The notes: generated by a model not told the origin, from the sequence alone. DNA of 64,000 nt from Minisyncoccota bacterium (GCA_036517255.1 DATDXE010000015.1:14568-78567); one strand, 5' to 3'. Counted from the first letter of the stretch, positions 103 to 16,667 are shown. Program-made: numbers and translations.

Positions 103-834
103 CTAGAGTAAATTTAACCTCAACATTATCATGTCCTTTATAGTGTTCAGAACTACTTTTGGTTTTGTACCACCTGCAATCCCGCTTCTCCTCTCATAAT
201 GGACCACCGGAAACTGTGCAATTTTATACCCCAATTTTTTGGCTTTTAGAATTAGCTCAGCATCTATAAAACCTCCTTTAGAACTACTGCATATATCTAT
301 CGAATCTAAAACACTTTTTTTAAAAATTTTCATGGAGCAATTAATGTCTTTAAAATTAACAAAAAATAAAATGTTTATTAAAAAGTTATGAAGATTAGAT
401 TGAAATACACGAAACTTTGATACTGCTTTTTTAATAGCGTATCCGGCTATAACATCGTTTGTCTTGAGTAAATTTAAATAAGGCTCAAAATCCCAAATAT
501 TATATTGATTATCACCATCTGTATACATAACATATTCATATCTTGCAGTATTAAATCCTTCTTTCATGGTAGCTGTGATTCCTTGATTTTTATTGTGATG
601 AACAACTCTGATATGAGGAAATTTTGTCGCCAAGTCGTCTGCGACTTGTCCCGTACTGTCTGGACTACAATCTTCTATTATCACAATCTCAAATTTTTCC
701 GTATTTTTTTCTAAAAAATTAAAAACTTGTGGAATCAATTCTGGTAGATTAAGTTCATCATGATAAGCTGGACAAAAAAATGATACTGACTTTAGCTTTT
801 CATTTTTTTTAGAAGCTTGTTCCATATAATTCAA
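103..834 (-). CDS. Glycosyltransferase family 2 (DPM/GtrB-like, soluble)
   Basis: N-terminal GT2 signature FFCPAYHDE...IVIIEDCSPDST and a DxD-like region; 243 aa. Confidence 0.6.
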   Translation of the reverse strand: MNYMEQASKKNEKLKSVSFFCPAYHDELNLPELIPQVFNFLEKNTEKFEIVIIEDCSPDSTGQVADDLATKFPHIRVVHHNKNQGITATMKEGFNTARYEYVMYTDGDNQYNIWDFEPYLNLLKTNDVIAGYAIKKAVSKFRVFQSNLHNFLINILFFVNFKDINCSMKIFKKSVLDSIDICSSSKGGFIDAELILKAKKLGYKIAQFPVVHYERRSGIAGGTKPKVVLNTIKDMIMLRLNLL

Positions 835-843
835 AAGAGTGTG

Positions 844-1524
844 CTAACTGTTATTTATTTTCAAAAGATCCTTGTAATAAGCTTCCCCTTCCCATTCTTT
901 GACCTTTTTCTCCGGATATTTGTATTCAGCATTATTTTCGCAAACAAAATAAAGATGCGGCGCAAGCCTAGCAATGATTCTATCTAGCAAAGGAGATTTG
1001 AAGATGTAAGGCCGAGCAAATTTTACCTTCCAGCCAGCTCTTTCGATAGTTAATTTCAAACTGTGGTAATTAAAAAAATTTATGTGGTTGGAAGCAAGCA
1101 TTCCCCTCCAAAATTTAAGATGGGTAAGAAAATAAAACATCGGGATCACCGGCACTCCAAGTATTAGACTAGTGTTTGAGCTCGACAGAGTTTTTAATTT
1201 AACTAAAAAAGCATGGGGCGAAAGTAGATGTTCAAACAAATTATTGGCCCAAACGACATCAAATTTAGTTTCTATATTTAGTTTAACTATTTCTTCAGCG
1301 TTACCTTTTATTATATTAAGCTGATTCCTAGAGCCAAAAGAAACTTCCTCAGAAGTAGAAGTGACACCCATACTACCCGGGCCAAAATGTCGCAGATACT
1401 GCCCGAAACCGCAACCTATATCTAAAACCTGCTTTTGCCTTAAATTATGCTGATTTAAAATATTACCAAAAGTTATCGAGCCTTTAACTGTATCGAACAT
1501 TGCTTTGATTGAGTCGCTTTCCAT
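844..1524 (-). CDS. Class I SAM-dependent methyltransferase
   Basis: Motif I VLDIGCGFGQY; Rossmann-like methyltransferase length. Confidence 0.5.
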   Translation of the reverse strand: MESDSIKAMFDTVKGSITFGNILNQHNLRQKQVLDIGCGFGQYLRHFGPGSMGVTSTSEEVSFGSRNQLNIIKGNAEEIVKLNIETKFDVVWANNLFEHLLSPHAFLVKLKTLSSSNTSLILGVPVIPMFYFLTHLKFWRGMLASNHINFFNYHSLKLTIERAGWKVKFARPYIFKSPLLDRIIARLAPHLYFVCENNAEYKYPEKKVKEWEGEAYYKDLLKINNS

Positions 1525-1533: not shown

Positions 1534-2148
1534 TTATTTGATCAAAAAAATATTGTAACCGCTGACCTGATTACTCTTGGACTTACCTGTTAGCTTATCG
1601 ACCAAGCGTGCCAACTTCAGAAAAATATCATATTTACAGAGTGGCGACAATTTGATCCACGTTTCCACTGCCCCCCGAAGAGGCTCGATTTCTATTGTTT
1701 GAAAACCTTTAAACATGAACCTAATGGCATCTTTGGTAAATCGCCAATAATCACCGTAGTTACCCTCTTCAATATGATAGTAGTAAAGAAAAGGCACGTA
1801 GACGAAGGCATAGCCGCCAGGCTTCAAAACTCTTTTTATTTCAATAGCAGCTTGTATCGGATTTTCCACGTGCTCAAGCACTGCGGCACAAATAATAGCG
1901 TCAAAGGAAACATCAGCAAAAGGCATTTTATGAATATCGCCGACAATATCAGGATTATATTTGGCGACATAATCCATTATTTTATAATCGACATTTTTTA
2001 AGTAAGGAATGATCCACGCTCTATCCGGATCAAACCGATTGTTCCTTTTTAGATCAATCCGCAAACCACCTCCAATATCAAGAATAGTCTTTTTTTCGGT
2101 AAAAATTTTGGTGATTTTTTCTTTAAAAAAGAGGTCCCACTTGGTCAT
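1534..2148 (-). CDS. Class I SAM-dependent methyltransferase (Methyltransf_11-like)
   Basis: ILDIGGG motif I; conserved acidic loop; 204 aa. Confidence 0.5.
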   Translation of the reverse strand: MTKWDLFFKEKITKIFTEKKTILDIGGGLRIDLKRNNRFDPDRAWIIPYLKNVDYKIMDYVAKYNPDIVGDIHKMPFADVSFDAIICAAVLEHVENPIQAAIEIKRVLKPGGYAFVYVPFLYYYHIEEGNYGDYWRFTKDAIRFMFKGFQTIEIEPLRGAVETWIKLSPLCKYDIFLKLARLVDKLTGKSKSNQVSGYNIFLIK

Positions 2149-3308
2149 TCGGCTAGTATATCATGTCTTGTAGACTGGGATATATTAGATATCTCTTGCA
2201 AAATATTCTGAGCTCTTTTAGTCCAAGAGTATTTTTGGACGTCTTGAAAAGCTTTTTCAACCGCTTTTACGCTTAATTCCGAATTCTCTATTACTTTTTT
2301 TATAACTTCAGCAAAAGACTCTGGATTGTCAGCTTCCGCAAAAAAACAATTTTTTTCATTCAACACTTCTCGCATCGATGGTAAGTCAGAAACAATAATC
2401 GGCTTCTTACTTGCCATGTATTCAAACAATTTGAGCGGAGAAGTGTAAGAAGAAGAAATGTTTGAATATTGAGAATTTGGTATTACTACTACATCAGCGG
2501 CTGCATTGTACAGAGGCATCATATTCCTTTCTTGGAAAGGGTGAATCACTATATTGGAATAACTACCAAAATTTTTTTTGAATTCGTCAATCTGTGGAGA
2601 AACTCCACCGACAAAAACAAAAGTGTATTCTGGTAATTTTTTAGCCGCCTCTGCTAAAGTGCCAACTCCCTTCCACTTATATAAGTGCCCGGTATAAACA
2701 ATGGTCTTCTTGTCTAGTTGTAAACCGAGTTTGGTCCTCGCTTCCTCTTGAGTTAAAGCAATTTTAAATTCATTCAGATCGACCCCACTTGGAGCAATAT
2801 GAATTTTCTCTGTCGGGACCCCGAAACCAATAAGAATATTTTTTATATTTTGGTTTAATACGAAAAAGAGCTTTGGTTTTTTGATGAGAAATTTGAATAA
2901 GAATTTGGAAGTGGGTATTTCGTGTAACTCCAAACAAACAAAATTTTTCCTAGAAAAAATAGTGGGAATCAAAAAATCACGTGTATATACTATATATCCC
3001 TCGACAACGATTTTGCGAAAAAAAAGAGAACATAAGAAAGAAATTATATCTACCCAGTAAAATAACTTGCCAAAAACAAAGAACGGACCTAAAAGATCAA
3101 TGCTTTTTACTCTATTTATCCTAAATTTTTCCTCTATTTTATAATACTTGAAAGGGTCTTCTCTTATCTCACTATGTTTTCGCTCTGGAATGATAAGTTC
3201 CACATCCGCGCTCGCTCGCCCGAACTCCTCGCACATTTTCATGATGGCATAAGCTTGAGCTCTGGGAGAAGGAATCCTTACATTAGTTATGTATTTTATT
3301 TTTAGCAT
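2145..3308 (-). CDS. Glycosyltransferase family 4 (GT-B, Glycos_transf_1 C-domain)
   Basis: C-terminal region matches the GT4 E-x7-E region (FEYMASKKPIIVSDLPSMREV). Confidence 0.55.
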   Translation of the reverse strand: MLKIKYITNVRIPSPRAQAYAIMKMCEEFGRASADVELIIPERKHSEIREDPFKYYKIEEKFRINRVKSIDLLGPFFVFGKLFYWVDIISFLCSLFFRKIVVEGYIVYTRDFLIPTIFSRKNFVCLELHEIPTSKFLFKFLIKKPKLFFVLNQNIKNILIGFGVPTEKIHIAPSGVDLNEFKIALTQEEARTKLGLQLDKKTIVYTGHLYKWKGVGTLAEAAKKLPEYTFVFVGGVSPQIDEFKKNFGSYSNIVIHPFQERNMMPLYNAAADVVVIPNSQYSNISSSYTSPLKLFEYMASKKPIIVSDLPSMREVLNEKNCFFAEADNPESFAEVIKKVIENSELSVKAVEKAFQDVQKYSWTKRAQNILQEISNISQSTRHDILAE

Positions 3309-4128
3309 TTACATTTTTATAATACTCCTCGATCACATCTAGACCTTTCTCTTCTTCTTTGGTATTTGATTTTTCTGTTTTGTGGATATATCCGCGCTCT
3401 CCTTCCAAGCAGTACTTACTCATACGATAATATGGAGACATTCCTTTGATTCTTGGCTGGAGCCCTTTTTCATCAATAAGACGCTGTAAAGGAAAAATAA
3501 CAGAATTCCATTCACTTAAGTCTGCTAAAGAATCAAAACTACTAGTCTCTCCCACTCTCGTCATTTTAGTTTCAGACAAATCAAATTTTCCACCCATATA
3601 ATCTAGCATTTCTCGAGTATAAAATTCGAATGACCCACGCAGTGAGAGTTTTTTAGGTAAATGAAGCCATTGTCGGAGTCGCCTTTGAGCATTGCCAGTC
3701 GTATTTGTAATAATTAACCAATCATTTTGTGGCAAAATATCCATATATACCTCATTTGTCAAAATAAAATTGTCGTCGTGAGTAAAGAGAAATTTATCGT
3801 ATTTTTTATAATCATACTTTTCAAGCCATTGATTTGAACACCCTAAATCACCTATCGTATTCGGATGAAGTTCATATTTCCAACCCAAAGCCTCGATTTC
3901 AGGCACAGTAGCGACCTTTCGATACATCAGGCGGTCATACAATTCTCGCCGACTAAATCCTAAATTTTTGAGGAGTTCTATTTTTTCTTTCTCTGAATAA
4001 GAGGGGTCTCTGTGAGAAATGACAAAGAGATCTACCTCCCAACCTTCAGGAATTTTCTGCTCTGCTATTTGTTCATAAAATGTTACAGGAAAATGCCAAC
4101 CACTAGCAACTACCGCTAATCTTTTCAT
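3283..4128 (-). CDS. Hypothetical protein inside glycan locus
   Basis: 281-aa ORF with no recognisable motif. It is translationally coupled to its neighbours by overlapping stop/start codons. Confidence 0.3.
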   Translation of the reverse strand: MKRLAVVASGWHFPVTFYEQIAEQKIPEGWEVDLFVISHRDPSYSEKEKIELLKNLGFSRRELYDRLMYRKVATVPEIEALGWKYELHPNTIGDLGCSNQWLEKYDYKKYDKFLFTHDDNFILTNEVYMDILPQNDWLIITNTTGNAQRRLRQWLHLPKKLSLRGSFEFYTREMLDYMGGKFDLSETKMTRVGETSSFDSLADLSEWNSVIFPLQRLIDEKGLQPRIKGMSPYYRMSKYCLEGERGYIHKTEKSNTKEEEKGLDVIEEYYKNVNAKNKIHN

Positions 4129-4688
4129 ACTTTTTTAATCATTGACAATGAGGGGAACTTTTCATCTATTACTTCGTAGGGCACTTTTGTATCAGTTATT
4201 TTCGGAAAACCATATTTTACCATCCATGGGATTTCATTCCGTTCTCCTCCCGCCCCTCCTTCAAAAAGGACAATCGCGCCAAGATCAACACGATCTTTCA
4301 CTGCCTCGTACAAACTTTCTATAGTGTCGCCATGGTTTGATACATCCACATGAAGAAGGTCAAAATCTTCCGGCTGTTTCAACCACTCCTTAAAATCCTT
4401 TTTTGATAAAGTAATATAACTTGAAAGACCGTAGCGATCTATATTTGCTTGTGTTTCAGGGATCGTCGAGTGATTGTAGGGGTAATCTTCAAAAAGATCG
4501 TTAGCATAAATATGTCCTTCACCGATCTCGTCGAGTGCCATGGCCATGGCTATAGAAGAATAACCATAAAGGACACCGAACTCGACGATTTTTTTGGGTT
4601 TGTATTTCAAAACCAAATCATAAAAAGTGTGCCCAATATCGTTTTCTCTGTACGAGGATTTTACGTCAACTGGATTTTTGTATTGCAT
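4125..4688 (-). CDS. Class I SAM methyltransferase, TylF/CmcI-like O-methyltransferase family (putative sugar O-MT)
   Basis: KKIVEFGVLYGYSSIAMAMAL...GHIYANDLFE resembles the macrocin-O-MT fold. Confidence 0.4.
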   Translation of the reverse strand: MQYKNPVDVKSSYRENDIGHTFYDLVLKYKPKKIVEFGVLYGYSSIAMAMALDEIGEGHIYANDLFEDYPYNHSTIPETQANIDRYGLSSYITLSKKDFKEWLKQPEDFDLLHVDVSNHGDTIESLYEAVKDRVDLGAIVLFEGGAGGERNEIPWMVKYGFPKITDTKVPYEVIDEKFPSLSMIKKV

Positions 4689-4697
4689 TTGATTTTA

Positions 4698-5753
4698 TTA
4701 AAACATAGAACTTACAAATCCACAAATCTTTCTCACATCTTCCACTGTCACACCATGATGTAACGGTAGAAAAAGATACTCATTCTCAAGCCTATCCATA
4801 TTAGGTAAATCAGCTTTGCCTCCAAAGACAGTATATTTATCATTCCTATAATGATGCGTACCAGAGCTTACACCATTTTCTTTTAGAAACTTTATAAGCT
4901 CATCTCTTTTCTTTGAATACACTGTGGCAAGCCAAATGTGAGCCTGGATGCCATTTTTTCTATACTCTTCTACAAGTTTTTTGCGATGATGAATTATTCT
5001 ATCTATTGATTGTAAATTACCTCTACCTATGGAGGCCGTTATATCACTCATATGGTATTTATAACCAGCTTCTACAATATCAGTATCGCCAATTTTTTGT
5101 TTCAGCTCTCTATTATAACCAAACCAACGTAATCGCTTGGCTTTATCACACAAATTTTTATCCTTACAAACTAAAAAACCTCCGTCGCCTGAAGTAAGTG
5201 TTTTTATAGCTTGCAAAGAAACACAGGTAAAATCGGCCTTACCCCAAAAATCGGAACCTACAGCCTGCGCCGCATCTTCTATTAAAATTAAATTCTTCTC
5301 TTTGGCAAGTTCTACTAGTTCTTTGAGTCCCCTATTGTTACCACCAAAATGTACGAAAACTATGGCTTTGGTTTTAGAAGTTATTTTACTCCTGACATCA
5401 TCAACACTCATATTCAAATCATCTCCAACATCAGCAAAAACAATTTTCGCCTTACGATGGAGGAGAGGTAAATTGGTAGCAACAGCTGTCATGACTGGAG
5501 TAACGACTTCATCCCCCTCTCCTATATCCGCAAGCTCGTAAGCGAGCTCTAAAGCTGAAGTGCCAGAATTGAGAGCAACAATATTTTCACAATTTAATTG
5601 ATCTGCAAACTTTTCTCCAAACTCTTTTTCAAAAGCTTTCACTTGTGGCCCCTCACCGATATATGCTCCATGATTAGATTTGAAGAGTAAAATACAAACA
5701 TTCCAAATGGAACGGAGTGAGATATATGATTTAAACAGACCTATTTTTCTCAT
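4698..5753 (-). CDS. DegT/DnrJ/EryC1/StrS family PLP-dependent sugar aminotransferase
   Basis: GPQVKAFEKEF...NSGTSALELA; a conserved Lys region (SLQAIKTLTSGDGG) near residue 185. Confidence 0.7.
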   Translation of the reverse strand: MRKIGLFKSYISLRSIWNVCILLFKSNHGAYIGEGPQVKAFEKEFGEKFADQLNCENIVALNSGTSALELAYELADIGEGDEVVTPVMTAVATNLPLLHRKAKIVFADVGDDLNMSVDDVRSKITSKTKAIVFVHFGGNNRGLKELVELAKEKNLILIEDAAQAVGSDFWGKADFTCVSLQAIKTLTSGDGGFLVCKDKNLCDKAKRLRWFGYNRELKQKIGDTDIVEAGYKYHMSDITASIGRGNLQSIDRIIHHRKKLVEEYRKNGIQAHIWLATVYSKKRDELIKFLKENGVSSGTHHYRNDKYTVFGGKADLPNMDRLENEYLFLPLHHGVTVEDVRKICGFVSSMF

Positions 5754-7025
5754 CTACTTAATAATTTTGAATTCTGGGAGAGGCACTATGAACTTTGATT
5801 TCAGACCCTTTGCCTTCCAATTCTTTATAATATAGTCCGCGAAATGCCAAGCGAGGATAAGCACATAATCGGGCTGCTCTTTGAGTAAGATTTCATTGCT
5901 CACAATTGGATTATGCGTCCCAGGCATGTATTTCCCCACTTTTTCAGTTCCTGGTAATTGAGCGATGTAAGGCAAAAGCGTTTTATCAAGACCAAAATAA
6001 TTTACAACTACCACCCCTCTCGTCGGGCAGGAGTCGGCCACAATTTTCTTACCTTCTTTTTTGGACTTGATAGCCAGTTCAAGAAACTGATGTTTGCTTT
6101 TATTTACTTTTTCTCTAAATTTTGCCCAAGCTTTCGGGTTAAATAACCCTGCTTTTTCTTCAGCTTGAAGTAGTTTTTTCACATTCGGGCTAATTTTGTG
6201 TTTGCCTTTAAATCCAGCATAAACCTTGATGCTGCCTTCGCGAGTCTTCACTCTCCTAGCATCGAAAACTTCCATTCCATAATATGGGAAGAGCTTTACT
6301 AAAGATTTAAGGCTATAAATGCGAACATGTTCATGATATATCTGATCAAATTGATTACCCTCAAACACATCGAGAAGATACTGGCTCTCAGTAACGACCG
6401 CGCCATCCTTATGAAGAAGAGCTTTCAGTCCCCGCATTACTCCACCTAGGCTCGCAACATGAGCAAAGACATTGGTAAATGTAATAATTTCCGCTCGCCC
6501 ATATTTTTTCACCACATCTTTAGCAACTGCTTCATTAAAAAAAGCTTGAATTGTATTAATTTTATTTTCCTTTCGAGCTGTCTTCGCCATATTAGTAGGC
6601 TCAATTCCTAATGTTTTCATCCCTTGCTCGCGAAAATTAGTAAGGAGTGTCCCATCGTTCGACCCTACATCGACACAGAAAGAGCCTTTCTTTAATTTAA
6701 GGTCTTTTGTAATGTCTTCAGTGAGAAGCTTTAAATGCTCACAGAGCGGCTTAGATATGCCAGTTCGATATACATAGTTAGTAGTAGAGAAAAGAAGTTT
6801 AGGATGAACAACATGGTCGAGCTGTCCCAGGCCTGATTCTGGACATATCATGAGACGCAGAGAATACATAGTTTCCGGTTGATTAAGACCTTCGTCAGTT
6901 AACAAAGCTCCGGCACTAGGCTGAAAACCAAGATCGATTGCCTCAAAAAGATTTTTTGACCCGCTGATCTGACAACGGTCCAGTTTACCCACGATAACAT
7001 CGTGATTTGGCTTTTTCATGCCCAA
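5754..7025 (-). CDS. NDP-hexose C-methyltransferase family (TylC3/NovU-like; N-terminal Zn-ribbon-like domain, class I MTase domain, C-terminal C-MT domain)
   Basis: CQISGS...; VDVGSNDGTLL motif I; C-terminal ...GVVVVNYFGLDKT... region typical of sugar C-MTs. It abuts the DegT stop codon. Confidence 0.55.
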   Translation of the reverse strand: MGMKKPNHDVIVGKLDRCQISGSKNLFEAIDLGFQPSAGALLTDEGLNQPETMYSLRLMICPESGLGQLDHVVHPKLLFSTTNYVYRTGISKPLCEHLKLLTEDITKDLKLKKGSFCVDVGSNDGTLLTNFREQGMKTLGIEPTNMAKTARKENKINTIQAFFNEAVAKDVVKKYGRAEIITFTNVFAHVASLGGVMRGLKALLHKDGAVVTESQYLLDVFEGNQFDQIYHEHVRIYSLKSLVKLFPYYGMEVFDARRVKTREGSIKVYAGFKGKHKISPNVKKLLQAEEKAGLFNPKAWAKFREKVNKSKHQFLELAIKSKKEGKKIVADSCPTRGVVVVNYFGLDKTLLPYIAQLPGTEKVGKYMPGTHNPIVSNEILLKEQPDYVLILAWHFADYIIKNWKAKGLKSKFIVPLPEFKIIK

Positions 7026-7088
7026 TATTTATAGCAGGAATTTAGGCTTAGGGCAAGATATAAAAGAAAAGAGAATTTTTTCAGTATT

Positions 7089-8147
7089 CTATTTCATCAA
7101 GGATTTTAATGGAGTCAACACCAGTCGAAACAGGCGATTTAATACTCTGCCTTCGGGGTAGAAGTGAGCATCATTTTCTTTCTTTCTTTCTTGGAGGCCA
7201 GTGAGAGTGCCCTTGATTACCTCTTCCAAACTTACTTTGGGGGAAAAGCCTATAGATTTGATTTTATCACTATTGATAGTATAGACTTGTTGATTAATTG
7301 TGTTTTCTTTATTTATTTTAACCCGAGCTTTCAGCCCATTCTTTTCAATCTCTTCAACTACATCTTCAAGATTGGTATTAAAAGAAGTTAAGTTGTAAGC
7401 CTGTCCTTTCATTTTACTAATATTTTCCATGGCAAAAATAATCGCGGCCGCTTCATCATTGAGAGCTAAATATGTTTTTGGATTTTTTAAAGCACTTTCA
7501 AAAAGAGTAGTGGTAATGCCATAAATAGATCGGATGCAGAGCATATTAATGATTGTTTCGTAGCGAAAGGCAGGGTTATATCCTACGAGAGTCGCAGAGC
7601 GCAAAGCGCAAGTATTAAAATTCTCGTCATCAAGCTGGAGGATAGCCTTCTCCGCTTCGTATTTCGATATGCCGTAAGTCGAGAGAGGTTCTTTTGGAGC
7701 ATCTTCTTTTAAATCTTCTCCTCTGCTATACATACTGACTGTTGATTGATAAATAAAAGTTTTGACCCCATGCTTTTTACAAACTTCCGCAATCTTAATT
7801 GCTGCAGTTTGATTTACTATAGTACACTCTATATCTTTCCCTTCTCTGTTAGTGGAAAAGGCATCTACTATCGCGGCTAAGTGAATTACCACATCAGGTT
7901 TATATTCAACGAGTACTTTTTCAAATTTTTCATAATCCCTTATATCAGCACTCTCCCAGGCAGTCATCTCCACATTGGGGAATAAATTTAGGAGAGGAGT
8001 GACATTCTCCAATTTACTTTTGGAGAGGTTGTCGTGTATTATTATTTTCGATTGGGGATATTTCCTAGCGAGCATCTTGACCGCGCTATATCCTACATAC
8101 CCCGCCCCACCAGTTACTAATATATTCATACAAGATAATAGTAACAT
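7089..8147 (-). CDS. NAD-dependent epimerase/dehydratase (SDR, sugar-nucleotide modifying)
   Basis: NILVTGGAGYVGYS Rossmann motif; YxxxK (YGISKYEAEK). Confidence 0.65.
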   Translation of the reverse strand: MLLLSCMNILVTGGAGYVGYSAVKMLARKYPQSKIIIHDNLSKSKLENVTPLLNLFPNVEMTAWESADIRDYEKFEKVLVEYKPDVVIHLAAIVDAFSTNREGKDIECTIVNQTAAIKIAEVCKKHGVKTFIYQSTVSMYSRGEDLKEDAPKEPLSTYGISKYEAEKAILQLDDENFNTCALRSATLVGYNPAFRYETIINMLCIRSIYGITTTLFESALKNPKTYLALNDEAAAIIFAMENISKMKGQAYNLTSFNTNLEDVVEEIEKNGLKARVKINKENTINQQVYTINSDKIKSIGFSPKVSLEEVIKGTLTGLQERKKENDAHFYPEGRVLNRLFRLVLTPLKSLMK

Positions 8148-8180
8148 AAATATACCATTAAAACTATAAAATACGCTGGT

Positions 8181-8215
8181 GTTTGTTGTATTGACAATGT
8201 AATTACATCATATAT
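8181..8215 (+). promoter_or_regulatory. Putative TA promoter with operator palindrome
   Basis: TTGACA-17 nt-ATACTT; the perfect palindrome ATGTAATTACAT overlaps the spacer. Confidence 0.35.
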
Positions 8216-8247
8216 ACTTGAGTTCATTAGCATTTTACACAAAACAA

Positions 8248-8520
8248 ATGAACTCCACTTTAAGCATTAGGATTAATAAAAAAATAAAAAAAGAGGCTAT
8301 GAATGTTTTCAGTAAACTTGGCCTTGATATTTCTTCTGGAGTAAAAATATTTCTTAATCAGGTAATTAACACTCGTTCTATCCCCTTCGAACCCAAAATG
8401 CATTATACGATGACTCCAAAACAAGAAAGATGGGTGATCAGACAAGTGAAAGAAGCAAAGAAGAATAGTAAAAGATACACAAGTATAGAAGAGTTACATA
8501 GAGATATTTTGGGTGAATAA
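8248..8520 (+). CDS. dinJ: RelB/DinJ family antitoxin
   Basis: LSIRINKKIKKEAMNVFSKLGLDISSGVKIFLNQVI...IPFEP matches the DinJ ribbon-helix-helix architecture. The start is more likely the internal ATG at 8248 than 8218. Confidence 0.6.
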   Translation: MNSTLSIRINKKIKKEAMNVFSKLGLDISSGVKIFLNQVINTRSIPFEPKMHYTMTPKQERWVIRQVKEAKKNSKRYTSIEELHRDILGE

Positions 8521-8799
8521 ATGCTTAGTGTATTTAGAACAAAAGCATATAGAAAAGCTATCAAAAAATATTCTGGATCTGGGAATTTTAATATTGAAAA
8601 AGTCGAATCTGTAATTAAAACTATTCAAAAAGGAGAAAAATTAGACAAAAAATACAGGAACCATGATTTAACAGGAAAGTACAGAGGAATAATGGAATGT
8701 CATATCAAACCAGATCTATTACTTCTTTATAAAATTGAGAAAGAAAATCTAATATTAATTTTGTTGAACTTAGGCAGTCACTCTGATTTGTTTGGGTAG
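8521..8799 (+). CDS. yafQ: YafQ/RelE family type II toxin (mRNA interferase)
   Basis: KYRNHDLTGKYRGIMECHIKPDLLLLYKI...LGSHSDLF is the YafQ C-terminal consensus. Its ATG immediately follows the antitoxin TAA. Confidence 0.7.
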   Translation: MLSVFRTKAYRKAIKKYSGSGNFNIEKVESVIKTIQKGEKLDKKYRNHDLTGKYRGIMECHIKPDLLLLYKIEKENLILILLNLGSHSDLFG

Positions 8800-8833
8800 T
8801 AGAGCCATATTTCATTAAGTAAATGCCTGGGCT

Positions 8834-8862
8834 TGACTTTTATACATAAAGTATGCTATAAT
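8834..8862 (+). promoter_or_regulatory. Near-consensus sigma70 promoter (TTGACT-17-TGcTATAAT, extended -10)
   Basis: -35 TTGACT 8834-8839; TG 8854-8855; TATAAT 8857-8862. The SD AAGGAGG 8867-8873 follows. Confidence 0.5.
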
Positions 8863-8880
8863 AACCAAGGAGGTAGCCCA

Positions 8881-9201
8881 ATGATATTGCGTGTTGGAAG
8901 TGTAGTGAAGTTCGTCTACAATCCAAGGAACGGCGAGCGGATCACCGACGTCCACTTGGACGGGGAAAATGTGGAGCTGTCATACGGCACCCAGCTTCAT
9001 TTTCACAATGGTTTGGATGTGAGACAGCCTGGGGTAGGTAGCAGTAAGATGTGGGTGCCAATCCCCGAAAACCTGAGGAAGGTGACCTATACGAAAAAAG
9101 ATGACCAAGTCGGCTTCATACCGATCGAGGAACCGGGGACATTCTTTCCGGTTCTGAAAATCGCCGGCGGACTAGCCACGATCATCTCCCTTCCTGAATA
9201 A
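8881..9201 (+). CDS. GC-rich small hypothetical protein (106 aa), foreign codon usage
   Basis: Perfect SD 8 nt upstream of ATG 8881. GC-rich third codon positions contrast with AT-rich neighbours. No recognisable family. Confidence 0.5.
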   Translation: MILRVGSVVKFVYNPRNGERITDVHLDGENVELSYGTQLHFHNGLDVRQPGVGSSKMWVPIPENLRKVTYTKKDDQVGFIPIEEPGTFFPVLKIAGGLATIISLPE

Positions 9202-9212
9202 CACTCAACACG

Positions 9213-9245
9213 GGCCGGTCCTTCGGGACCGGTCTATTCTTTTAT
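9213..9245 (+). terminator. GC hairpin (UUCG tetraloop) followed by a T-rich tract
   Basis: CCGGTCC-TTCG-GGACCGG, then TCTATTCTTTT. Confidence 0.45.
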
Positions 9246-9270
9246 ACATATGTTATGATAATAAAAAATT

Positions 9271-11184
9271 ATGTGTGGCATTGCTGGATATATTGGAAAT
9301 GGAGGCAATAAAGACAAACTAAAGGCAATGGCCAAAGCGTTAGAGAGGCGTGGGCCAGATGATGAGGGGTTTTATGAGACAAGTAGTGAAGGAAAAAAGG
9401 TAGGCTTCGCTTTCAGACGACTTTCTATAATAGATGTAGCAGGAGGTCACCAGCCTATTTCAAACGAAAATGGTGATGTGTGGGTGATGTTAAATGGTGA
9501 AATTTATGACTTCAAGCCTCTGCGAGAAAAACTATTAAATTTGGGGCACCAATTTAAAACTCAATCAGACACAGAAGTTATCGTTCACGCTTACGAAGAG
9601 TGGAGTGAAGAATGTTTTAAAAAATTGGACGGGATGTTCGCCATCGCTATTTGGGACTCGAAAAAGCAAAAGTTGACTCTAGCTCGCGATAGGCTTGGTA
9701 AAAAACCTCTTTATTACACTATTCAAAAAAATACCGGGGAAAGTACAATGTGGTTTGCTTCTGAACTAAAAGCCCTGATTGCGGTGGGTGCTTTCAAAAA
9801 AGAAATTGATCCTGAGTCTTTGAATTTATATTTCAGGACTGAAGCCGTGCCGACCCCTAAAACCATCTTTAAAGAAGTTTATAAATTAGAGCCAGCCACC
9901 TCTCTTTCTTTTGTTGATGGGAAAATAACGAAAAATAAATTCTGGAACTACCCGACAGAAACCATAGAAAACTTAGGCGCAGAAAATGTAGTAGAAGAAT
10001 TAGGAAAAAGGATAGATGAAAGTGTAAGAAAAAGATTGGTTTCTGACGTACCTCTAGGGCTTTTCCTTTCAGGAGGGCTTGATTCAGCGATAGTGGCAGA
10101 AAGCGCAAGTAGACAACACCCAGGGCTAGAAGCTTTCACCCTAGGATTTGAAGACAAAACTTATGACGAAACAGAGAATGCCAAAATAATAGCAAAAACT
10201 TTGGGTCTCAAACATCATATTGAGATTCTTTCAGAAGAAAAAGCTCTGGCCGTTTTAGAAGACGCAATAAATTTACTTGATGAGCCACTCGCTGACCCAT
10301 CTATTTTACCCCAACTTCTACTTTCAAAATTTACTAGAGAAAATGTGACTGTCGCTCTCTCTGGAGATGGAGGCGACGAACTACTCCTCGGTTACCAACA
10401 CATCCCCGCTCATATATGGAGAGAGAGATTGGATTTTCTGCCAGGAGCTTTTTGGAATATGAGTAAGAAAATTTTAAACACAGTGCCATCGGGAAGTGGC
10501 TATTTTAGTTTGGGGTTCAAAACTCAAAGACTTGCTCGCGGGCTTGATTTGGAAAACCGTCTTGAAAGAGATGCGACATGGCGAGGCGCATTTGATCAAG
10601 AAACTTTACAAAAGTTACTAAAGATGACCTTTGGGCTACCGCACCAAGGGTCATCTTTAGTAACTAACGAAGCTGAAAATATTTTAAAAGCTTACGCATC
10701 TGAAACTTCAAATCCTGAGAGTTGGTCAGCATGGAGCTGGGCATATTTAAGAACATTCCTCATGGACGACGTATTGGTGAAAGTAGATAGAGCAACCATG
10801 TGGCACTCTCTCGAAGCCCGCGCCCCACTCTTGGATACGAATGTTGTATCTTTTCTTTTGAGTTTACCCGATGAATACAAATTAGGAAAATACAGAGACA
10901 AAAGATTATTTAAAGAAATACTAAAGAAAAGATTGCCTGAATCTATTTTGAACGCCTCCAAACATGGCTTCGGTGTCCCTATTTCTAAATGGCTAAATGG
11001 GGTTCTAAAAAATAAATTGCTAGAAGTTTCTGACCCAGAATTTCTAAAAAAACAAAATTTATTTGATTCTTCAGCAATAGCAAAATTAATAAAAGAGCAT
11101 GCCGCAGGTGGTAAAGATCGCCGCAAAGAACTTTGGGCCTTTTTATGTTTCCAAATGTGGTACATTAGATGGCACATAAAATAA
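9271..11184 (+). CDS. asnB: Asparagine synthase (glutamine-hydrolysing) family amidotransferase
   Basis: MCGIAGYIG N-terminal Cys nucleophile; SGGLDSA PP-loop; 637 aa. Confidence 0.75.
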   Translation: MCGIAGYIGNGGNKDKLKAMAKALERRGPDDEGFYETSSEGKKVGFAFRRLSIIDVAGGHQPISNENGDVWVMLNGEIYDFKPLREKLLNLGHQFKTQSDTEVIVHAYEEWSEECFKKLDGMFAIAIWDSKKQKLTLARDRLGKKPLYYTIQKNTGESTMWFASELKALIAVGAFKKEIDPESLNLYFRTEAVPTPKTIFKEVYKLEPATSLSFVDGKITKNKFWNYPTETIENLGAENVVEELGKRIDESVRKRLVSDVPLGLFLSGGLDSAIVAESASRQHPGLEAFTLGFEDKTYDETENAKIIAKTLGLKHHIEILSEEKALAVLEDAINLLDEPLADPSILPQLLLSKFTRENVTVALSGDGGDELLLGYQHIPAHIWRERLDFLPGAFWNMSKKILNTVPSGSGYFSLGFKTQRLARGLDLENRLERDATWRGAFDQETLQKLLKMTFGLPHQGSSLVTNEAENILKAYASETSNPESWSAWSWAYLRTFLMDDVLVKVDRATMWHSLEARAPLLDTNVVSFLLSLPDEYKLGKYRDKRLFKEILKKRLPESILNASKHGFGVPISKWLNGVLKNKLLEVSDPEFLKKQNLFDSSAIAKLIKEHAAGGKDRRKELWAFLCFQMWYIRWHIK

Positions 11185-11195
11185 AAAGATAAAAA

Positions 11196-12530
11196 ATGAG
11201 GTACAAAACATTCCTAATACCAGCTTTCATTGCCTTCCTCCTCGCCAGCTTTTATATAGTAAAAAGTCCTGGAGTAATAGAAAGTGACGCCAAAGAGTAC
11301 GATGATTTGGCCATTTCCATTTTAGATGGCAAATTTGAACTAGCTGGCGAGGTCAGTATGGAAAGAGAACCGGCCTACCCCCTTTTCCGCGCTATCCTAA
11401 AAATTATAAAAGATAGTCCAGGTTTTATACTCTGGGTCCAAGCTATCATATATTTCTTCAGCATCTTTTTAATCGGCCTGACTATGAGCAAAATTGATCC
11501 TGAAAAGGGACACTTCGCTGCCTGGGGAGCAGCTCTCGCTTACGGACTAGCCTTCTACCCTTCGGTTCACATTTCTGAAACATTAGTCGCTTTCCTCCTC
11601 GCGCTCATAGGTTATAACCTTATGGAGGGGATAGAAAAACATTCTTGGGTCTATTTCGTAAATATAGCTATATTTTCTTCTTTCTTACTCCTCACTCGTT
11701 ACACATATATCCTAGTGCCTATCGCAGCATTTTTTATTTTATTGAAATACACCAAAGAGAAACTAAAAGTTTATATGGGTTTTCTGATAATTTTATGCCT
11801 TGTTACTCCTTGGGTGGTGAGAAATTATAAACAGTTTGGTGAATTTAATATGGCCGGTCGCTCTGGCGGCATACTTTATGCAAGAGCTTTGAGAGCTGAC
11901 GCTTCCTGGCGAAGCTTAGGCGATAGTTACCTCTCTGCTTTAGTAGGTCGGGGTATATTATTTACAATCTATCCGAATAATCAATCCATCTGGCTTGAAC
12001 AGTGGGGAGATTGGTGGAGAGACAAAGAAACCATAAGAGAAATGTGGGGTGAAGGCCGTATTGAAATAGATAGGAATAGAAAAGAGGCCGCTTTCGATAT
12101 TATTTTTAAAGATTTTAATACTTTTGCAAAGTTTGTAGCTTGGACTGGAGTCGACGAATTACGCTTGCTCCAATTACCAAACCCCATCTTTCAAGCAGGA
12201 GGTTCACCTATCGAAGGTACTTATGGGGTCGAGGCTCAAAATACCAACCTCTCTGGTTTAAAATTGGGAGCTCTCGGTATCACTCATCTAATCCAATTAA
12301 TTTGGTTTATAGTCGTTATATTTAGTACATGGATTGGATTTAAAAAATACGGACTGAAATTCCTACCAGGAATTTTCCTGATTTGTGTACTCCTACCTCA
12401 CAGTATCGCCGACAATATCGCTAGGTACGGAGCTCCATTGCAACCATGGCTCCTTTCTGGTATTTTTATGACGCTTTTATACCCACTAAAAACACATGTC
12501 TTTAAGCGTCATAATACCAGCCTTCAATGA
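11196..12530 (+). CDS. Polytopic membrane protein, GT-C-like (ArnT/PMT-type) glycosyltransferase candidate
   Basis: Ten or more predicted TM helices. An acidic motif (ESDAKEYDD) sits in the first extracytoplasmic loop. It is adjacent to a polyprenyl-P sugar synthase gene. Confidence 0.4.
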   Translation: MRYKTFLIPAFIAFLLASFYIVKSPGVIESDAKEYDDLAISILDGKFELAGEVSMEREPAYPLFRAILKIIKDSPGFILWVQAIIYFFSIFLIGLTMSKIDPEKGHFAAWGAALAYGLAFYPSVHISETLVAFLLALIGYNLMEGIEKHSWVYFVNIAIFSSFLLLTRYTYILVPIAAFFILLKYTKEKLKVYMGFLIILCLVTPWVVRNYKQFGEFNMAGRSGGILYARALRADASWRSLGDSYLSALVGRGILFTIYPNNQSIWLEQWGDWWRDKETIREMWGEGRIEIDRNRKEAAFDIIFKDFNTFAKFVAWTGVDELRLLQLPNPIFQAGGSPIEGTYGVEAQNTNLSGLKLGALGITHLIQLIWFIVVIFSTWIGFKKYGLKFLPGIFLICVLLPHSIADNIARYGAPLQPWLLSGIFMTLLYPLKTHVFKRHNTSLQ

Positions 12531-13365
12531 AGAGAACGCTATCGCCGATACTATTAAGCGTATCCAAAATCTAGGAAGGAAAGAAAATAGAGAAATAGAA
12601 ATCATAGTGGTTAACGATGGTAGTAGCGACACAACAGCGGAAATCGCTAGAAGCTCTGGGGCTAAAGTGATAGATCACCCAGAAAATGGGGGCTATGGCC
12701 TCTCAATTCAACATGGCATAGAAGTTGCTTCTCACTCCCTCATAGGCATTACCGATGCAGATGGCACCTACCCAATAGAAGAATTCCCCAAGTTAATTCA
12801 AATGGTCGAGGTGCAAGGCTTCGATATGGCAGTAGGAGCAAGGACAGGGAGTGAACACAAAAAAGGGTTATTTAAATATCCGGCCAGGATAATGTTTCGC
12901 CTCCTTGCCGAATATGTTTCCGGTCGACGAATTCCAGATATAAATTCCGGGCTTCGAGTGATGAAGAAGGATAAACTTTTGATGCATTACGAAAGAACTT
13001 GTCTTGGTTTTTCCTTCACTACCTCTATCACCCTCATTTTTATGCTCAAGGGATATTTCGTGGGCTATACTCCGATTCCATATGCTAAAAGAGTAGGTAA
13101 CTCGAAAATCCGTCACTTCAGGGACACATTACGCACTGCTCAAATCATGATCTCTGTCATTGCACACCACAATCCCCTGAAACTTTTTTTGCTTCTCTCC
13201 ATGATGAGCACTCTATTTTCCTTGGTATGTTTTGCCATTGGCACCACAACCACATTTTATTTGTTTTCAGTGATCGGCTCTGTCCTCATCGGCGGCGTGC
13301 CCATCATCCTCGCCCTCGGCTGCCTTGCCGAACTCTTTCGCCTTAGTAGCGACAAAGGTATCTAA
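12496..13365 (+). CDS. GT2 polyprenyl-phosphate sugar synthase (DPM1/ArnC/GtrB-like) with C-terminal TM helices
   Basis: LSVIIPAFNEE...IIVVNDGSSDTT...ITDADGTYP; two C-terminal TM segments. Confidence 0.65.
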   Translation: MSLSVIIPAFNEENAIADTIKRIQNLGRKENREIEIIVVNDGSSDTTAEIARSSGAKVIDHPENGGYGLSIQHGIEVASHSLIGITDADGTYPIEEFPKLIQMVEVQGFDMAVGARTGSEHKKGLFKYPARIMFRLLAEYVSGRRIPDINSGLRVMKKDKLLMHYERTCLGFSFTTSITLIFMLKGYFVGYTPIPYAKRVGNSKIRHFRDTLRTAQIMISVIAHHNPLKLFLLLSMMSTLFSLVCFAIGTTTTFYLFSVIGSVLIGGVPIILALGCLAELFRLSSDKGI

Positions 13366-13370
13366 AAATT

Positions 13371-14369
13371 CTATTCTTTTTGATATTCAAAAGTAATTTT
13401 GGAAATATCACCAATAATTTTCTCCAGATTTTTAAAATCGGAACCTTTGGTCATGATACAAATAAAATAAGGTTTTTTGGGTAAATAAACTATGCCGCAA
13501 TCGTGCAATTCATGGTAATTCCATGCGCCATCTTTATAAAGACCACTCTCACCAAATTTGTGAGCTATCACTACATCTTCCGGCACCCCCTGCCTTAAAC
13601 CTTTATCGAAATTGGTGTAAGTGAGTAATTGAAGAGCTTGCTCCGAAATCGATCTAGGCAAATAGGTGCCATTGTATAAGACTCTAAATATACGGGAATA
13701 GAGTTTGGCAGACAAAAAATCTTCACCCAGTTTAGCCGTTTCAGGCAAACGCAAATGTTTATAGAAATCTAATATTTCATTCGAATGTCCTTTAACTAAA
13801 AGTGGAGCTATGACATTATCGGAATTTACTATCATTTGCTTGATAAGATCAGAAGCACTGTAAAGACCATCAGGAAAAGTTTTGGATTTATAAAACTGCC
13901 CAGGATAATCTTCCTGTTTATAATAGAATTTCTGATTTAAGATACTTGGATCGTCTTTGGCTAGTTTGAGATACACCACCATTATGGCCACTTTCAACAT
14001 ACTGGCGGGAGCATATAGTTCATCTTCGTTCACACCGGTCCACTTACTAGTATTCATGTCTCTAAAATAAAAAGATGTTTTCTCTGCCTCTCCCTTCTCC
14101 ATAGCCTCATCTATGTATTTAGAGACTTGGTTTTTCAGAGGATCAAGTTCTGGAAAATCTTCTTCAGCATTGTCTAGAAATAGAAAAGGATTTATATATT
14201 TATATTCTGTTGAATCCTCTCTTACCGGTATAGACGATGCTTCTCCGATAACCCCCCTCTGCTCTAAATAAATATTCCCGAACCAACCAAAAAGAACGAG
14301 TAAGCTACCGAGGAACATATTTTTATAATTTAATATCTGGTGCATTTTGGCAATCATAAATAAAAGCAT
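13371..14369 (-). CDS. Serine hydrolase, class A beta-lactamase / DD-peptidase-like, membrane anchored
   Basis: SxxK (SMLK) and SDN motifs; N-terminal TM helix. Confidence 0.45.
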   Translation of the reverse strand: MLLFMIAKMHQILNYKNMFLGSLLVLFGWFGNIYLEQRGVIGEASSIPVREDSTEYKYINPFLFLDNAEEDFPELDPLKNQVSKYIDEAMEKGEAEKTSFYFRDMNTSKWTGVNEDELYAPASMLKVAIMVVYLKLAKDDPSILNQKFYYKQEDYPGQFYKSKTFPDGLYSASDLIKQMIVNSDNVIAPLLVKGHSNEILDFYKHLRLPETAKLGEDFLSAKLYSRIFRVLYNGTYLPRSISEQALQLLTYTNFDKGLRQGVPEDVVIAHKFGESGLYKDGAWNYHELHDCGIVYLPKKPYFICIMTKGSDFKNLEKIIGDISKITFEYQKE

Positions 14370-16047
14370 TCATATAACGATCGCGAGCTTCATATATTTT
14401 TTTACACGAATCAAAATACTTTCGATAAATACTATTCGGATCGACAGGAGGAGCATCGATTTCGAGGTAGTGGCCGGAGAAATTATTGATAGTTTCTATT
14501 TTTTGATTCTGATCAAAAATTGGCGAAGTATAAAGGCGTTTTTGATATTTACCAGTTTGCATTATTTCCCTGCCACCATTGTCATTGTAAACGACCACTT
14601 TTTTTATATCAGAATTATTTTTAATAAATTCCGCTGCATCACGCACAAGAGCTGGAGCATATCCGTTTATTTTACCGAATGTATATTCTTCAATAAATAC
14701 AGCGTTATAAAATAGCCCTAGAATCAAGAAGGCAACCCAAATTTCTTTTTGCAAATTCTTCTTCCATAAATACAACCCCGTGAACACTGCCCCCAAAATC
14801 CAAGATAGGGCAATAAAAATAAAAGAAACATAGAAAGTAAGAGGCCCAGAGCCACCGCTAAATGGATACAGGAAATTCCAGTTGAAAGAAAGTATCCTGT
14901 CTATCCACTCTGCCTTAGGGTGCAATGCTGGGACATATTGGTCTAGAAATTGAGTAAGGAAAACGAAGAAAACACAAAGCAGAAAAATTATTTTGCTAGC
15001 GTGCCTTCGTAGGAGCGACGGCGACGAAGAGAGAAAATTTTCAGCAGAAAATACTCCAGCAATAATACAAAGTGGCACAATCATGAATTGGAAGTAACGA
15101 TCCAGAGCTCCAGCTGAAAAATCGAAAAGAATGAGATAGAAAATTAATCCAAGTGCTAAGAAGAGATGAAATAATTTTAAGTCTTTACTATACGGCGATC
15201 CCACTTCGCTAAAGCTTCGCGGGACAAGCAAGGAAATAAGAAAAGATAAAACTAAAAATGGAGACAGATAAAATAGAGCTTTCACAAACTGGATACCGCT
15301 TTGGAAGAAATTCCTGCTGCCGAAGCCTTTCATAAAAGTTTCAGAGTAAGCTATTATTTTTTGCAAATCGAAACCTGGGAAAAGTTTTTGGGCTACAAAC
15401 ATAAGTAAGGCAACTAAAACAGCAAAAGAGATTAACCCACTTAAAGCATATAAAATGTTTTTACGATTAAGTTTTTCTTTATGATTCCAAACAAAATCGA
15501 GAATTAAGGCTCCAATAACAAGAGCAAAACTAAACTTAACCAACATTCCTAAGATGAGAGCGGCCACGAGCAAGCCACCAAATAAAAACTTTTTATTGCC
15601 AGTAGAAGAACTAAAATAATCATAAAACAAAATAGAAAGAAGAAAGAAGAAAGGTAGCACTGCCCCATCAGTATCTATCATAAGCGAAGCTAGAACTGAG
15701 AAAAATGAAAGAGCAAAAAATAGAGAAGACCAAAGAGCCGCCCCTACCCCGTACCGACGACGCACAATAATATAAATTAAAGTCAGGTTAATAAGAGAGA
15801 ATATAAGTGGCGTAACTCTAAAATTCTCATCTCCAAAAAAGTTCCGAGTAGCCCTATAGATGGCTTCACTAAGTGGAGGGTGTGGAATAACCCCCGGTTC
15901 AGTCAGTTCCGGATTTACAATTATCGGCCACTTGTATTCATCTTGGTGATATGGAGCGTGGATAGCAGGTAACCTTAAAGCAAAAAACAAAATAATGATA
16001 CCGAAGAACAACAGATATTCCTTTTTATTAGAAACAAAAGCCTGCAT
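14323..16047 (-). CDS. GT-C family membrane glycosyltransferase (ArnT / PMT_2-like, GT39/83)
   Basis: 574 aa and heavily polytopic. First-loop DE motif (HQDEYKW) is typical of ArnT/PMT enzymes. Confidence 0.5.
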   Translation of the reverse strand: MQAFVSNKKEYLLFFGIIILFFALRLPAIHAPYHQDEYKWPIIVNPELTEPGVIPHPPLSEAIYRATRNFFGDENFRVTPLIFSLINLTLIYIIVRRRYGVGAALWSSLFFALSFFSVLASLMIDTDGAVLPFFFLLSILFYDYFSSSTGNKKFLFGGLLVAALILGMLVKFSFALVIGALILDFVWNHKEKLNRKNILYALSGLISFAVLVALLMFVAQKLFPGFDLQKIIAYSETFMKGFGSRNFFQSGIQFVKALFYLSPFLVLSFLISLLVPRSFSEVGSPYSKDLKLFHLFLALGLIFYLILFDFSAGALDRYFQFMIVPLCIIAGVFSAENFLSSSPSLLRRHASKIIFLLCVFFVFLTQFLDQYVPALHPKAEWIDRILSFNWNFLYPFSGGSGPLTFYVSFIFIALSWILGAVFTGLYLWKKNLQKEIWVAFLILGLFYNAVFIEEYTFGKINGYAPALVRDAAEFIKNNSDIKKVVVYNDNGGREIMQTGKYQKRLYTSPIFDQNQKIETINNFSGHYLEIDAPPVDPNSIYRKYFDSCKKIYEARDRYMNAFIYDCQNAPDIKL

Positions 16048-16099
16048 TTACAATCACATAATACCAAATCTGCCCTCCAAATGAAGTCTCTCCTCTCCC

Positions 16100-16128
16100 T
16101 TGCAAAATAAGCTGTATTATGCTATAAT
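16100..16128 (+). promoter_or_regulatory. Near-consensus sigma70 promoter (TTGCAA-17-TGcTATAAT)
   Basis: It shares the 13-mer TATGCTATAATAA with the promoter at 8834-8862. The SD AAGGAG lies at 16172-16177. Confidence 0.5.
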
Positions 16129-16188
16129 AATGACTAGATTCTTAAAAATTCGTCCCAATACTGGGACAATACACAAGGAGAAGTATCC

Positions 16189-16593: not shown

Positions 16594-16613
16594 AGCCTCG
16601 CAGTTCCCTCCCC

Positions 16614-16652: not shown

Positions 16653-16667
16653 TATTTTAGATGAGGT

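Follow-up and report, generated by a model that had tools for sequence, protein, structure and literature searches.

What sugar do the clustered methyltransferase and aminotransferase genes of an ultra-small bacterium make, and how is it installed? We addressed this for a 64,000-nucleotide stretch of DNA from a Minisyncoccota bacterium (GCA_036517255.1 DATDXE010000015.1:14568-78567), referred to here as the window. At 4125-8147 the window encodes a short-chain dehydrogenase/reductase (SDR), a predicted nucleoside diphosphate (NDP)-hexose C-methyltransferase, a DegT-family aminotransferase and a small methyltransferase. Such a gene set would naturally yield a C-methyl-branched amino sugar, as the initial annotation had proposed. 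On balance, we lean toward the view that the operon makes a C-methyl-branched, 4-aminated, methylated 6-deoxyhexose and installs it on a surface glycan of a Candidatus Paceibacterota bacterium. The gene set is a variant of known branched amino-sugar chemistry; what we add here is a lineage-conserved cassette, an orphan family with a glycosyltransferase (GT)-A-like fold, and interchangeable front ends.

We found that four co-oriented minus-strand open reading frames (ORFs), at 7089-8147, 5754-7025, 4698-5753 and 4125-4688, exactly fill the interval in which four contiguous sugar genes had been annotated, with gaps of 63, 0 and 9 bp. The operon extends beyond 4125 down to position 103 and past the start of the window, adding five genes downstream: an orphan 281-aa protein, a GT4, two class I methyltransferases and a GT2. 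From the C-methyltransferase down to the GT2, the genes are spaced by 0, 9, -4, -26, -4, 9 and 9 bp, negative values being overlaps. Contigs identical to the window (L001-L003) show more genes past this GT2, namely GT2, methyltransferase and unknown ones. Database orthologues place the start of the C-methyltransferase at ATG 7019 (421 aa, P0001), two codons inside a 423-aa ORF, and that of the SDR at ATG 8129 (346 aa, P0241). The features are as follows.

8148-8217, no strand: intergenic region from which the SDR gene and a relB/yafQ pair diverge, assigned by position
7089-8129, minus strand: extended SDR, called SDR7089 (PF01370, 1.2e-30; ORF open from 8147)
5754-7019, minus strand: predicted NDP-hexose C-methyltransferase of the TcaB9/KijD1/MtmC/TylC3 family (PF08421, PF13489 and PF08484; ORF open from TTG 7025)
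4698-5753, minus strand: DegT-family pyridoxal phosphate (PLP)-dependent sugar aminotransferase, probably C4-acting (PF01041, 9.1e-69)
4125-4688, minus strand: small class I S-adenosylmethionine (SAM) methyltransferase, Methyltransf_24 (PF13578, 7e-14)
3283-4128, minus strand: orphan 281-aa protein with a GT-A-like fold and an HDDN motif, candidate dedicated transferase (Foldseek)
2145-3308, minus strand: GT4 glycosyltransferase, GT-B fold (PF00534, 8.4e-21)
1534-2148, minus strand: SAM methyltransferase, Methyltransf_11 (PF08241, 2.1e-15)
844-1524, minus strand: SAM methyltransferase, Methyltransf_23 (PF13489, 3e-15)
103-834, minus strand: GT2 glycosyltransferase (PF00535, 7e-23)

By position alone, 8148-8217 is likely to be the promoter region of the operon. 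It holds weak sigma-70-like matches on both strands, at site counts not above those of shuffled sequence, and a promoter and terminator scan did no better than shuffled sequence.

Is the second of these genes a sugar C-methyltransferase? The 5754-7025 product passes the models of that family, scoring 59.1 bits with Methyltransf_13 (PF08421, 5e-16; cut-off 31.3), 56.6 bits with Methyltransf_23 (PF13489, 3.3e-15) and 135 bits with Methyltransf_14 (PF08484, 2.6e-39; cut-off 23.5). These matches lay out a three-domain architecture, with an N-terminal Methyltransf_13 domain, a class I SAM domain and a C-terminal Methyltransf_14 domain. The same three domains make up TcaB9 (tetronitrose), KijD1 (kijanose), MtmC (mycarose), TylC3 and EvaC, which the window protein matches over its full length at E-values from 5.8e-61 to 7.2e-44. 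Among PDB sequences, the end-to-end matches include MtmC (4rv9, 5.8e-61, residues 16-421), KijD1 (5t64, 4.3e-48) and TcaB9 (3ndi, 2.9e-45). The motifs YVYRTG, FAHV and IYHEH line up with those of MtmC and KijD1, so that the Tyr, His and Tyr-x-Glu-His of the TcaB9/KijD1/MtmC-type enzymes are kept. Y84, H187, Y228, E/D230 and H231, which we take to correspond to the active-site residues of TcaB9, are invariant across an alignment of the 120 closest homologues. The product of 5754-7019 is thus a predicted NDP-hexose C-methyltransferase.

TcaB9-type enzymes have a four-Cys zinc site, of which the window protein retains two Cys and most of the clade two or three. In the window protein the CxxC...CxxC ribbon reads CQIS...CPES (residues 16-19 and 59-62). 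The second position of the pairs is T or S in 114 and S in 109 of the 120 homologues, and the ribbon is degraded in this way in more than 90% of the clade. About half of the 120 have a compensating Cys at position 36; the window protein has none there. Because the site is structural, its loss lowers strict family typicality, not the catalytic assignment.

Homologues of this C-methyltransferase number in the thousands. The 120 closest clusters are 65-100% identical to it, and nearly all of the names they carry are lineages of the Candidate Phyla Radiation (CPR), or Patescibacteria; an identical protein is labelled Candidatus Paceibacterota in NCBI. Two close homologues (L015 and P0071, 69-71% identical) belong to bins that bear the names Hyphomicrobiales and Actinomycetes, and these labels reflect either mis-binning or transfer outside the ultra-small bacteria. 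The gene set had been described as rare in ultra-small bacteria. This may be so of the literature, in which a search on Patescibacteria, DegT and glycosyltransferases found no paper on the cassette and one on 3-C-methyl 4-amino O-antigen sugars found nothing relevant to ultra-small bacteria. It does not describe the sequence data, in which the closest clusters are mostly from CPR; judged from these, the cassette is widespread in ultra-small bacteria.

We compared 33 close loci, with C-methyltransferases 62-87% identical to that of the window, and 50 distant loci from outside the CPR. Among the close loci are ones labelled Paceibacterota, Saccharibacteria and Levybacteria. In 31 of the 33 a DegT-family gene adjoins the C-methyltransferase, a Methyltransf_24 homologue is present in 14, and in about 12 the order continues with Methyltransf_24, orphan and GT4. 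Among the 50 distant loci, the C-methyltransferase is accompanied by DegT once, by an RmlC-like gene in 23 and by a generic SDR in 27; neither Methyltransf_24 nor the orphan lies beside it in any of them. In two Microgenomates-type relatives, L004 (10001-17700, Roizmanbacteria) and L013, a C-methyltransferase 69-70% identical to that of the window follows a more distant DegT (41%). L004 has a GIY-YIG ORF inserted between these two genes, and three Methyltransf_24 paralogues and several unannotated genes after the C-methyltransferase; L013 has a similar unannotated run.

The DegT and SDR family calls of the initial annotation hold, with PF01041 at 9.1e-69 (232.8 bits) for the first and PF01370 at 1.2e-30 for the second; the Pfam scores of all four genes in the interval lie far outside what chance would give. 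The DegT protein keeps the PLP lysine, and not the histidine found in dehydratase members: in the alignment with TlmJ, the K of SLQAIKTLTSGDGG is matched by that of SFDAMKILVTGDGG. Its best NCBIfam matches are PseC, dTDP-4-amino-4,6-dideoxygalactose transaminase and ArnB, all of them C4 transaminases, and its best PDB matches, TlmJ, QdtB and CalS13, mix C4 (CalS13) and C3 (QdtB) enzymes. From pathway logic, the DegT protein probably acts at C4.

The small methyltransferase had been called TylF-like. We instead assign it to Methyltransf_24 (PF13578, 53 bits, 7e-14), since it gives no match to the TylF profile PF05711 at E<=0.01 and no TylF, MycF or CalS11 chain among its PDB matches at E<=1. 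PF01596 and PF04989 match below their cut-offs. The protein weakly resembles cation-dependent O-methyltransferases, its best PDB match being an O-methyltransferase of family 3 (7cvu, E 0.006), and its predicted acceptor atom is either O or N. Of the two methyltransferases farther downstream, the Methyltransf_23 protein (844-1524) best matches an uncharacterised methyltransferase in the PDB (3cc8). A link of these two to the sugar N,N-dimethyltransferases TylM1 and DesVI was looked for, and no match of that kind was found.

What, then, transfers the sugar? The orphan at 3283-4128 has no match in Pfam, NCBIfam or PHROG, and a profile search finds none among PDB sequences. Its 409 homologues are all unnamed or labelled hypothetical, and only 146 clusters among 1.84 billion representatives match it. 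An AlphaFold (AF2) model of the protein has a predicted local distance difference test score (pLDDT) of 88 and a predicted template modelling score (pTM) of 0.89. Foldseek matches of this model are exclusively GT-A transferases (among them RmlT, SpsA, TarP and TarS), all distant (E ~1e-5, template modelling (TM) score 0.35-0.46, 8-15% identity). A DxD-like HDDN motif is invariant in the family, and a fusion with a TOD1/MUCI70 glycosyltransferase-like domain occurs in one homologue. We read the modelled protein as a putative GT-A-type glycosyltransferase and as a candidate for the dedicated sugar transferase of the cassette. Most relatives that have the orphan also carry a GT4 homologue (28-39% identity) downstream of it (L006, L008, L009, L012, L014, L018, L070, L075, L076 and L088), and homologues of the Methyltransf_11 gene (1534-2148) lie downstream of the GT4 in L009, L012 and L070.

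We next turn to the front end of the pathway. The SDR had been called an epimerase/dehydratase. It carries QSTVSMY...YGISK, with STVSMY in place of the TDE motif of 4,6-dehydratases, and reaches 78.7 bits with the RmlB-type model TIGR01181, against a cut-off of 365. Because it lacks the dehydratase Asp-Glu pair, it is not a 4,6-dehydratase. Its closest solved relative is Cj1427 of Campylobacter jejuni (6vo6/6vo8, which the fold-search description names as its NAD-dependent C4-dehydrogenase), found by phmmer against the PDB at 4.6e-26, with the next match at 2.8e-19. A profile of 27 family members gives 131.9 bits to 6vo6 and 93.4 to the next chain, a margin of 38 bits, with RmlD reached only at ~1e-12. 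Cj1427 is also the top Foldseek match (TM 0.74-0.86, ~28% identity). The SDR additionally matches the RmlD substrate-binding domain (PF04321, 7.4e-19) and GalE.

Cj1427 is a C4-dehydrogenase that makes GDP-4-keto-heptose; as an extended SDR, it carries out C4 oxidation with no dehydration step, letting epimerases and other enzymes act on the keto sugar (PMC10680097). Like the window SDR, it has no acidic residues where dehydratases have the Asp-Glu pair. The two differ in substrate, which is GDP-heptose for Cj1427 and is predicted to be, probably, dTDP-6-deoxyhexose for the window SDR, and in what lies downstream, an epimerase and a reductase for the former and a C-methyltransferase and an aminotransferase for the latter. 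Cj1427 recycles its tightly bound NADH with alpha-ketoglutarate, and the window SDR may do likewise. By analogy, the window SDR probably supplies the 4-keto sugar substrate.

The SDR family comprises 277 matches, including DPANN archaea, and contains 516-518-aa fusions to an RmlC domain; in L074 a homologue lies beside RmlC-like and DegT genes. Since RmlC and DegT enzymes need a keto sugar, an SDR joined to or beside them lends indirect support to the supply of a 4-keto sugar, as does the substitution in gene neighbourhoods described below. In archaeal contigs, SDR homologues are fused to or adjoin RmlC-like epimerases (L072/L073, 10001-11551; L074, 9371-10984), an arrangement that may be an oxidise-epimerise-reduce module. 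One of these contigs carries STT3 and another is labelled Diapherotrites. L072 has only one other SDR, which is without dehydratase residues, and no nucleotidyltransferase nearby.

If the SDR feeds the pathway, what do relatives without it carry in its place? Two upstream layouts are found among close loci with an orthologous DegT. In layout 1, a dehydratase and RmlC lie upstream (six loci: L009/L069, L011, L012, L070, L075 and L088), with an RmlA-like gene in five of the six and none detected in L075. Three more loci (L014/L090 and L015) have a looser version of this layout. In layout 2, the SDR7089 orthologue alone lies upstream (five loci: the window, L008, L010, L018 and L076). Directly upstream in L069 and L070 are a TDE dehydratase (VSTDEVYG), an RmlA-like gene and a true RmlC, and the RmlC of relatives scores 202 bits with TIGR01221 against a cut-off of 155.75. 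The chemistry in L069 and L070 therefore runs through a dTDP-4-keto-6-deoxyhexose. This is the start of the dTDP-L-rhamnose pathway, whose RmlA-like, TDE-bearing RmlB-like and RmlC genes lie upstream of the same cassette genes in L069, L070, L011, L012 and L088. In the 64-kb window none of the three was found, and their position is taken by one non-dehydratase SDR. The two layouts never co-occur in the sampled loci, and the SDR and the Rml trio share the upstream position.

The downstream enzymes do not follow this division. Identity within and between layouts is 78.5 and 75.5% for the C-methyltransferase and 72.5 and 70.6% for DegT, and columns with layout-disjoint residues number four and zero, respectively. 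As neither protein is separated by layout, the same substrate is expected in both.

These comparisons allow a route to be proposed. The chemistry of layout 1 is fairly clear: glucose-1-phosphate would be converted to dTDP-glucose and then to dTDP-4-keto-6-deoxyglucose, RmlC would epimerise this, and C-methylation, C4 transamination, further methylation and transfer would follow. In the window, the SDR may take a nucleotide sugar present in the cell and oxidise it at C4 to an NDP-4-keto sugar; the simplest candidate substrate is a dTDP-6-deoxyhexose, for instance dTDP-L-rhamnose. This step, modelled on the action of Cj1427 on GDP-heptose, is the weakest in the proposal. The C-methyltransferase would then use SAM to methylate the carbon beside the keto group, most likely C3 and possibly C5, and DegT would transaminate C4. 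Methyltransf_24, and perhaps the two downstream methyltransferases, may add O- or N-methyl groups, and the orphan and the GT4 may transfer the sugar into a lipid- or protein-linked glycan. A final reduction of the RmlD type is not needed in the cassette because C4 is aminated. The sequences themselves show the gene families, the catalytic residues that are kept, the layout of the operon and its conserved synteny. For the window sugar, we infer which carbons are methylated and aminated, which nucleotide carries it and that it is a 6-deoxy sugar.

The last of these merits comment, because a deoxy sugar had been annotated. In the window itself the deoxy function is not encoded; it is suggested by relatives alone. 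Searching the 64 kb with the relatives' RmlA, RmlC and NUDIX proteins by tblastn gave no match. The initial annotation had pointed to a 4,6-dehydratase and a nucleotidyltransferase as enzymes to look for, and neither was found within the 64 kb; neither of its two SDRs has the dehydratase residues. The second SDR (21534-22490) was considered as the missing 4,6-dehydratase and ruled out, its motif being ASTSSVYG and its best match 6zl6 (3e-63), which we take to be a UDP-glucuronate 4-epimerase.

Several observations weigh against the proposed route. The loci compared are few, and some of them repeat one another: L009 and L069 cover a single region, and each of L014/L090, L016/L085 and L071/L081 is probably one locus sampled twice. 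Every NCBIfam match of DegT sits below its cut-off, and its best PDB matches include a 3-aminotransferase, QdtB. By fold, Cj1427 (E 1.5e-24) is hardly ahead of GalE-type epimerases (1.7e-23) as a match for the SDR, and an SDR-RmlC fusion equally fits a pair of RmlC and an RmlD-type reductase. The keto sugar could also come from housekeeping rmlABC(D) genes in another part of the genome, leaving the SDR with another job. This last point grows into an explanation of its own that we regard as possible, short of favouring it: the sugar core would be the same, rmlA, rmlB and rmlC elsewhere would give the 4-keto-6-deoxy sugar, and the SDR would be a 4-ketoreductase or an epimerase. As such, it could turn the C-methylated intermediate into a second sugar, a neutral 3-C-methyl-6-deoxyhexose resembling evalose or virenose, or else provide one of the other glycosyltransferases with an unrelated donor. 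The PF04321 and GalE matches agree with this, the fold search cannot part the SDR from epimerases, its fusions look like RmlC-RmlD pairs, and the distant loci, with RmlC-like and SDR genes and a single DegT among them, have the neutral-sugar layout with a reductase. However, the family profile clearly favours Cj1427 over RmlD, and the cassettes with RmlA, dehydratase and RmlC contain neither such an SDR nor a reductase, which places a reductase outside the conserved pathway. That the SDR and the Rml trio share a position and never occur together in the sampled loci fits substitution better than an added branch.

The identity of the sugar can be weighed in the same way. The RmlA, 4,6-dehydratase and RmlC of relatives point to a branched 4-amino-4,6-dideoxy sugar of the kansosamine/sibirosamine type. 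N-acyl-kansosamine, from the lipooligosaccharide of Mycobacterium kansasii, and sibirosamine, from sibiromycin, are 4-amino-4,6-dideoxy-3-C-methyl hexoses. They carry the decorations predicted here, namely 6-deoxy, 3-C-methyl, 4-amino and O- or N-methyl. Kansosamine, which has been described as unique, is found in a surface glycolipid (PMC4403928). It is N-acylated, whereas the window has no N-acyltransferase, unlike the relative L069, which has a hexapeptide-repeat acyltransferase; the hosts are unrelated. We think it improbable that the C-methyltransferase acts at C5 instead, as NovU does for noviose, to give a 5-C-methyl (gem-dimethyl) 4-amino sugar. An RmlC-type epimerase such as that of relatives removes protons at both C3 and C5 of this 4-keto sugar, and to our knowledge sequence alone does not fix the methylation position in this family, both of which leave room for C5; yet the solved full-length relatives MtmC, KijD1 and TcaB9 are all 3-C-methyltransferases and share the pattern around YxEH. 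Vancosamine- or evernitrose-type sugars, the class named in the initial annotation, require a 2,3-dehydratase, a 3-aminotransferase and a 4-ketoreductase. We consider such a 3-amino-2,3,6-trideoxy-3-C-methyl sugar very unlikely here. The strong homologues TcaB9 and KijD1 do act in pathways of this kind, and QdtB would be in keeping with one. The partners of TcaB9-type enzymes are a 2,3-dehydratase, a 3-aminotransferase and a 4-ketoreductase in an actinomycete antibiotic cluster, and those in the window are DegT, Methyltransf_24 and the orphan GT-A-like protein in the surface-glycan locus of an ultra-small bacterium. No Pfam family of 2,3-dehydratases or 4-ketoreductases was found in the operon genes, the other ORFs at 1-29 kb or the ten largest ORFs at 35-64 kb, a scan that took in the small ORFs at 33-64 kb only in part, nor in the precomputed annotations of L069, L070 and L071. 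With no 2,3-dehydratase and no obvious 4-ketoreductase in the operon or the relatives' cassettes, the vancosamine/evernitrose class is not supported; no 3,4-ketoisomerase was seen, and the best NCBIfam matches of DegT are, as noted, all C4 transaminases.

The preferred reading thus remains a 4-aminated, C-methyl-branched 6-deoxyhexose of the kansosamine type. A broader extension of it can be offered tentatively: in ultra-small bacteria (and, for the SDR, also in some DPANN archaea), a Cj1427-like one-gene front end might replace RmlA, RmlB and RmlC by re-oxidising a finished dTDP-L-rhamnose-like sugar, feeding a lineage-wide kansosamine-like pathway whose product is installed by a previously unrecognised GT-A family.

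The operon lies within a glycan locus, as initially annotated, with GT2, GT4, PMT_2 and GtrA genes around it. The locus holds GT2 and GT4 genes, a GT4-GtrA fusion, two PMT_2 proteins (GT-C), the UDP-glucuronate-4-epimerase-like SDR, an AsnB-like amidotransferase and a deacetylase-methyltransferase fusion. An opposite-strand block at 8218-14369 parts the cassette from the rest of this locus. It contains a RelB/YafQ toxin-antitoxin pair (8218-8799), an unknown ORF (8833-9201), the AsnB-like amidotransferase (9271-11184), a PMT_2 and a GT2, and ends with a minus-strand beta-lactamase2-like gene (13371-14369). The block looks like an insertion, because L008 has the orthologues of window 14323-26013 immediately beside the SDR. 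A TrwB/TraG-like coupling ATPase adjoins the glycan locus, with a fusion of a polysaccharide deacetylase/DUF2334 domain to a class I methyltransferase nearby (26023-27759 and 23205-24827). About 10 kb beyond the glycan locus, 36592-37950 encodes an initiating phosphoglycosyl transferase (Bac_transf, WbaP/PglC-type), a candidate initiator of a lipid-linked glycan; it adjoins a SecD-like gene (35310-36581, Pfam SecDF domains).

Other features of the window lie apart from these genes. Guanine-cytosine content rises to 0.55 at 41673-43893, against ~0.40 elsewhere, over three plus-strand ORFs beside the gene for ribosomal protein L2. Two of the ORFs have a terminal PEP-CTERM sorting motif (PF07589, E 2-4e-5); proteins of this kind are unexpected in a Paceibacterota genome. 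After a 16S rRNA gene on the minus strand (32034-33548) come a LAGLIDADG endonuclease ORF that stands on its own (31290-31748) and tRNA-Ile (30138-30213); no 23S rRNA was detected within the window.

Bacteria of the ultra-small CPR/Patescibacteria lineages spend their lives attached to host cells, and the chemistry of their surfaces has hardly been described. The strong conservation of the cassette predicts that a rare C-methylated, 4-aminated, methylated sugar is a recurrent feature of their surfaces. The cassette gives glycan analysis a target mass and a nuclear magnetic resonance signature, gives the orphan GT-A-like family a likely donor substrate, and may hold a short way into 4-keto sugar chemistry that takes a single enzyme. 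Should the SDR do no more than reduce or epimerise, the cassette would be of the common O-antigen-style tailoring type, found in an unusual host. If the Cj1427-like reading of the front end is true, these bacteria would have a genome-economising entry to keto sugars together with a signature surface sugar.

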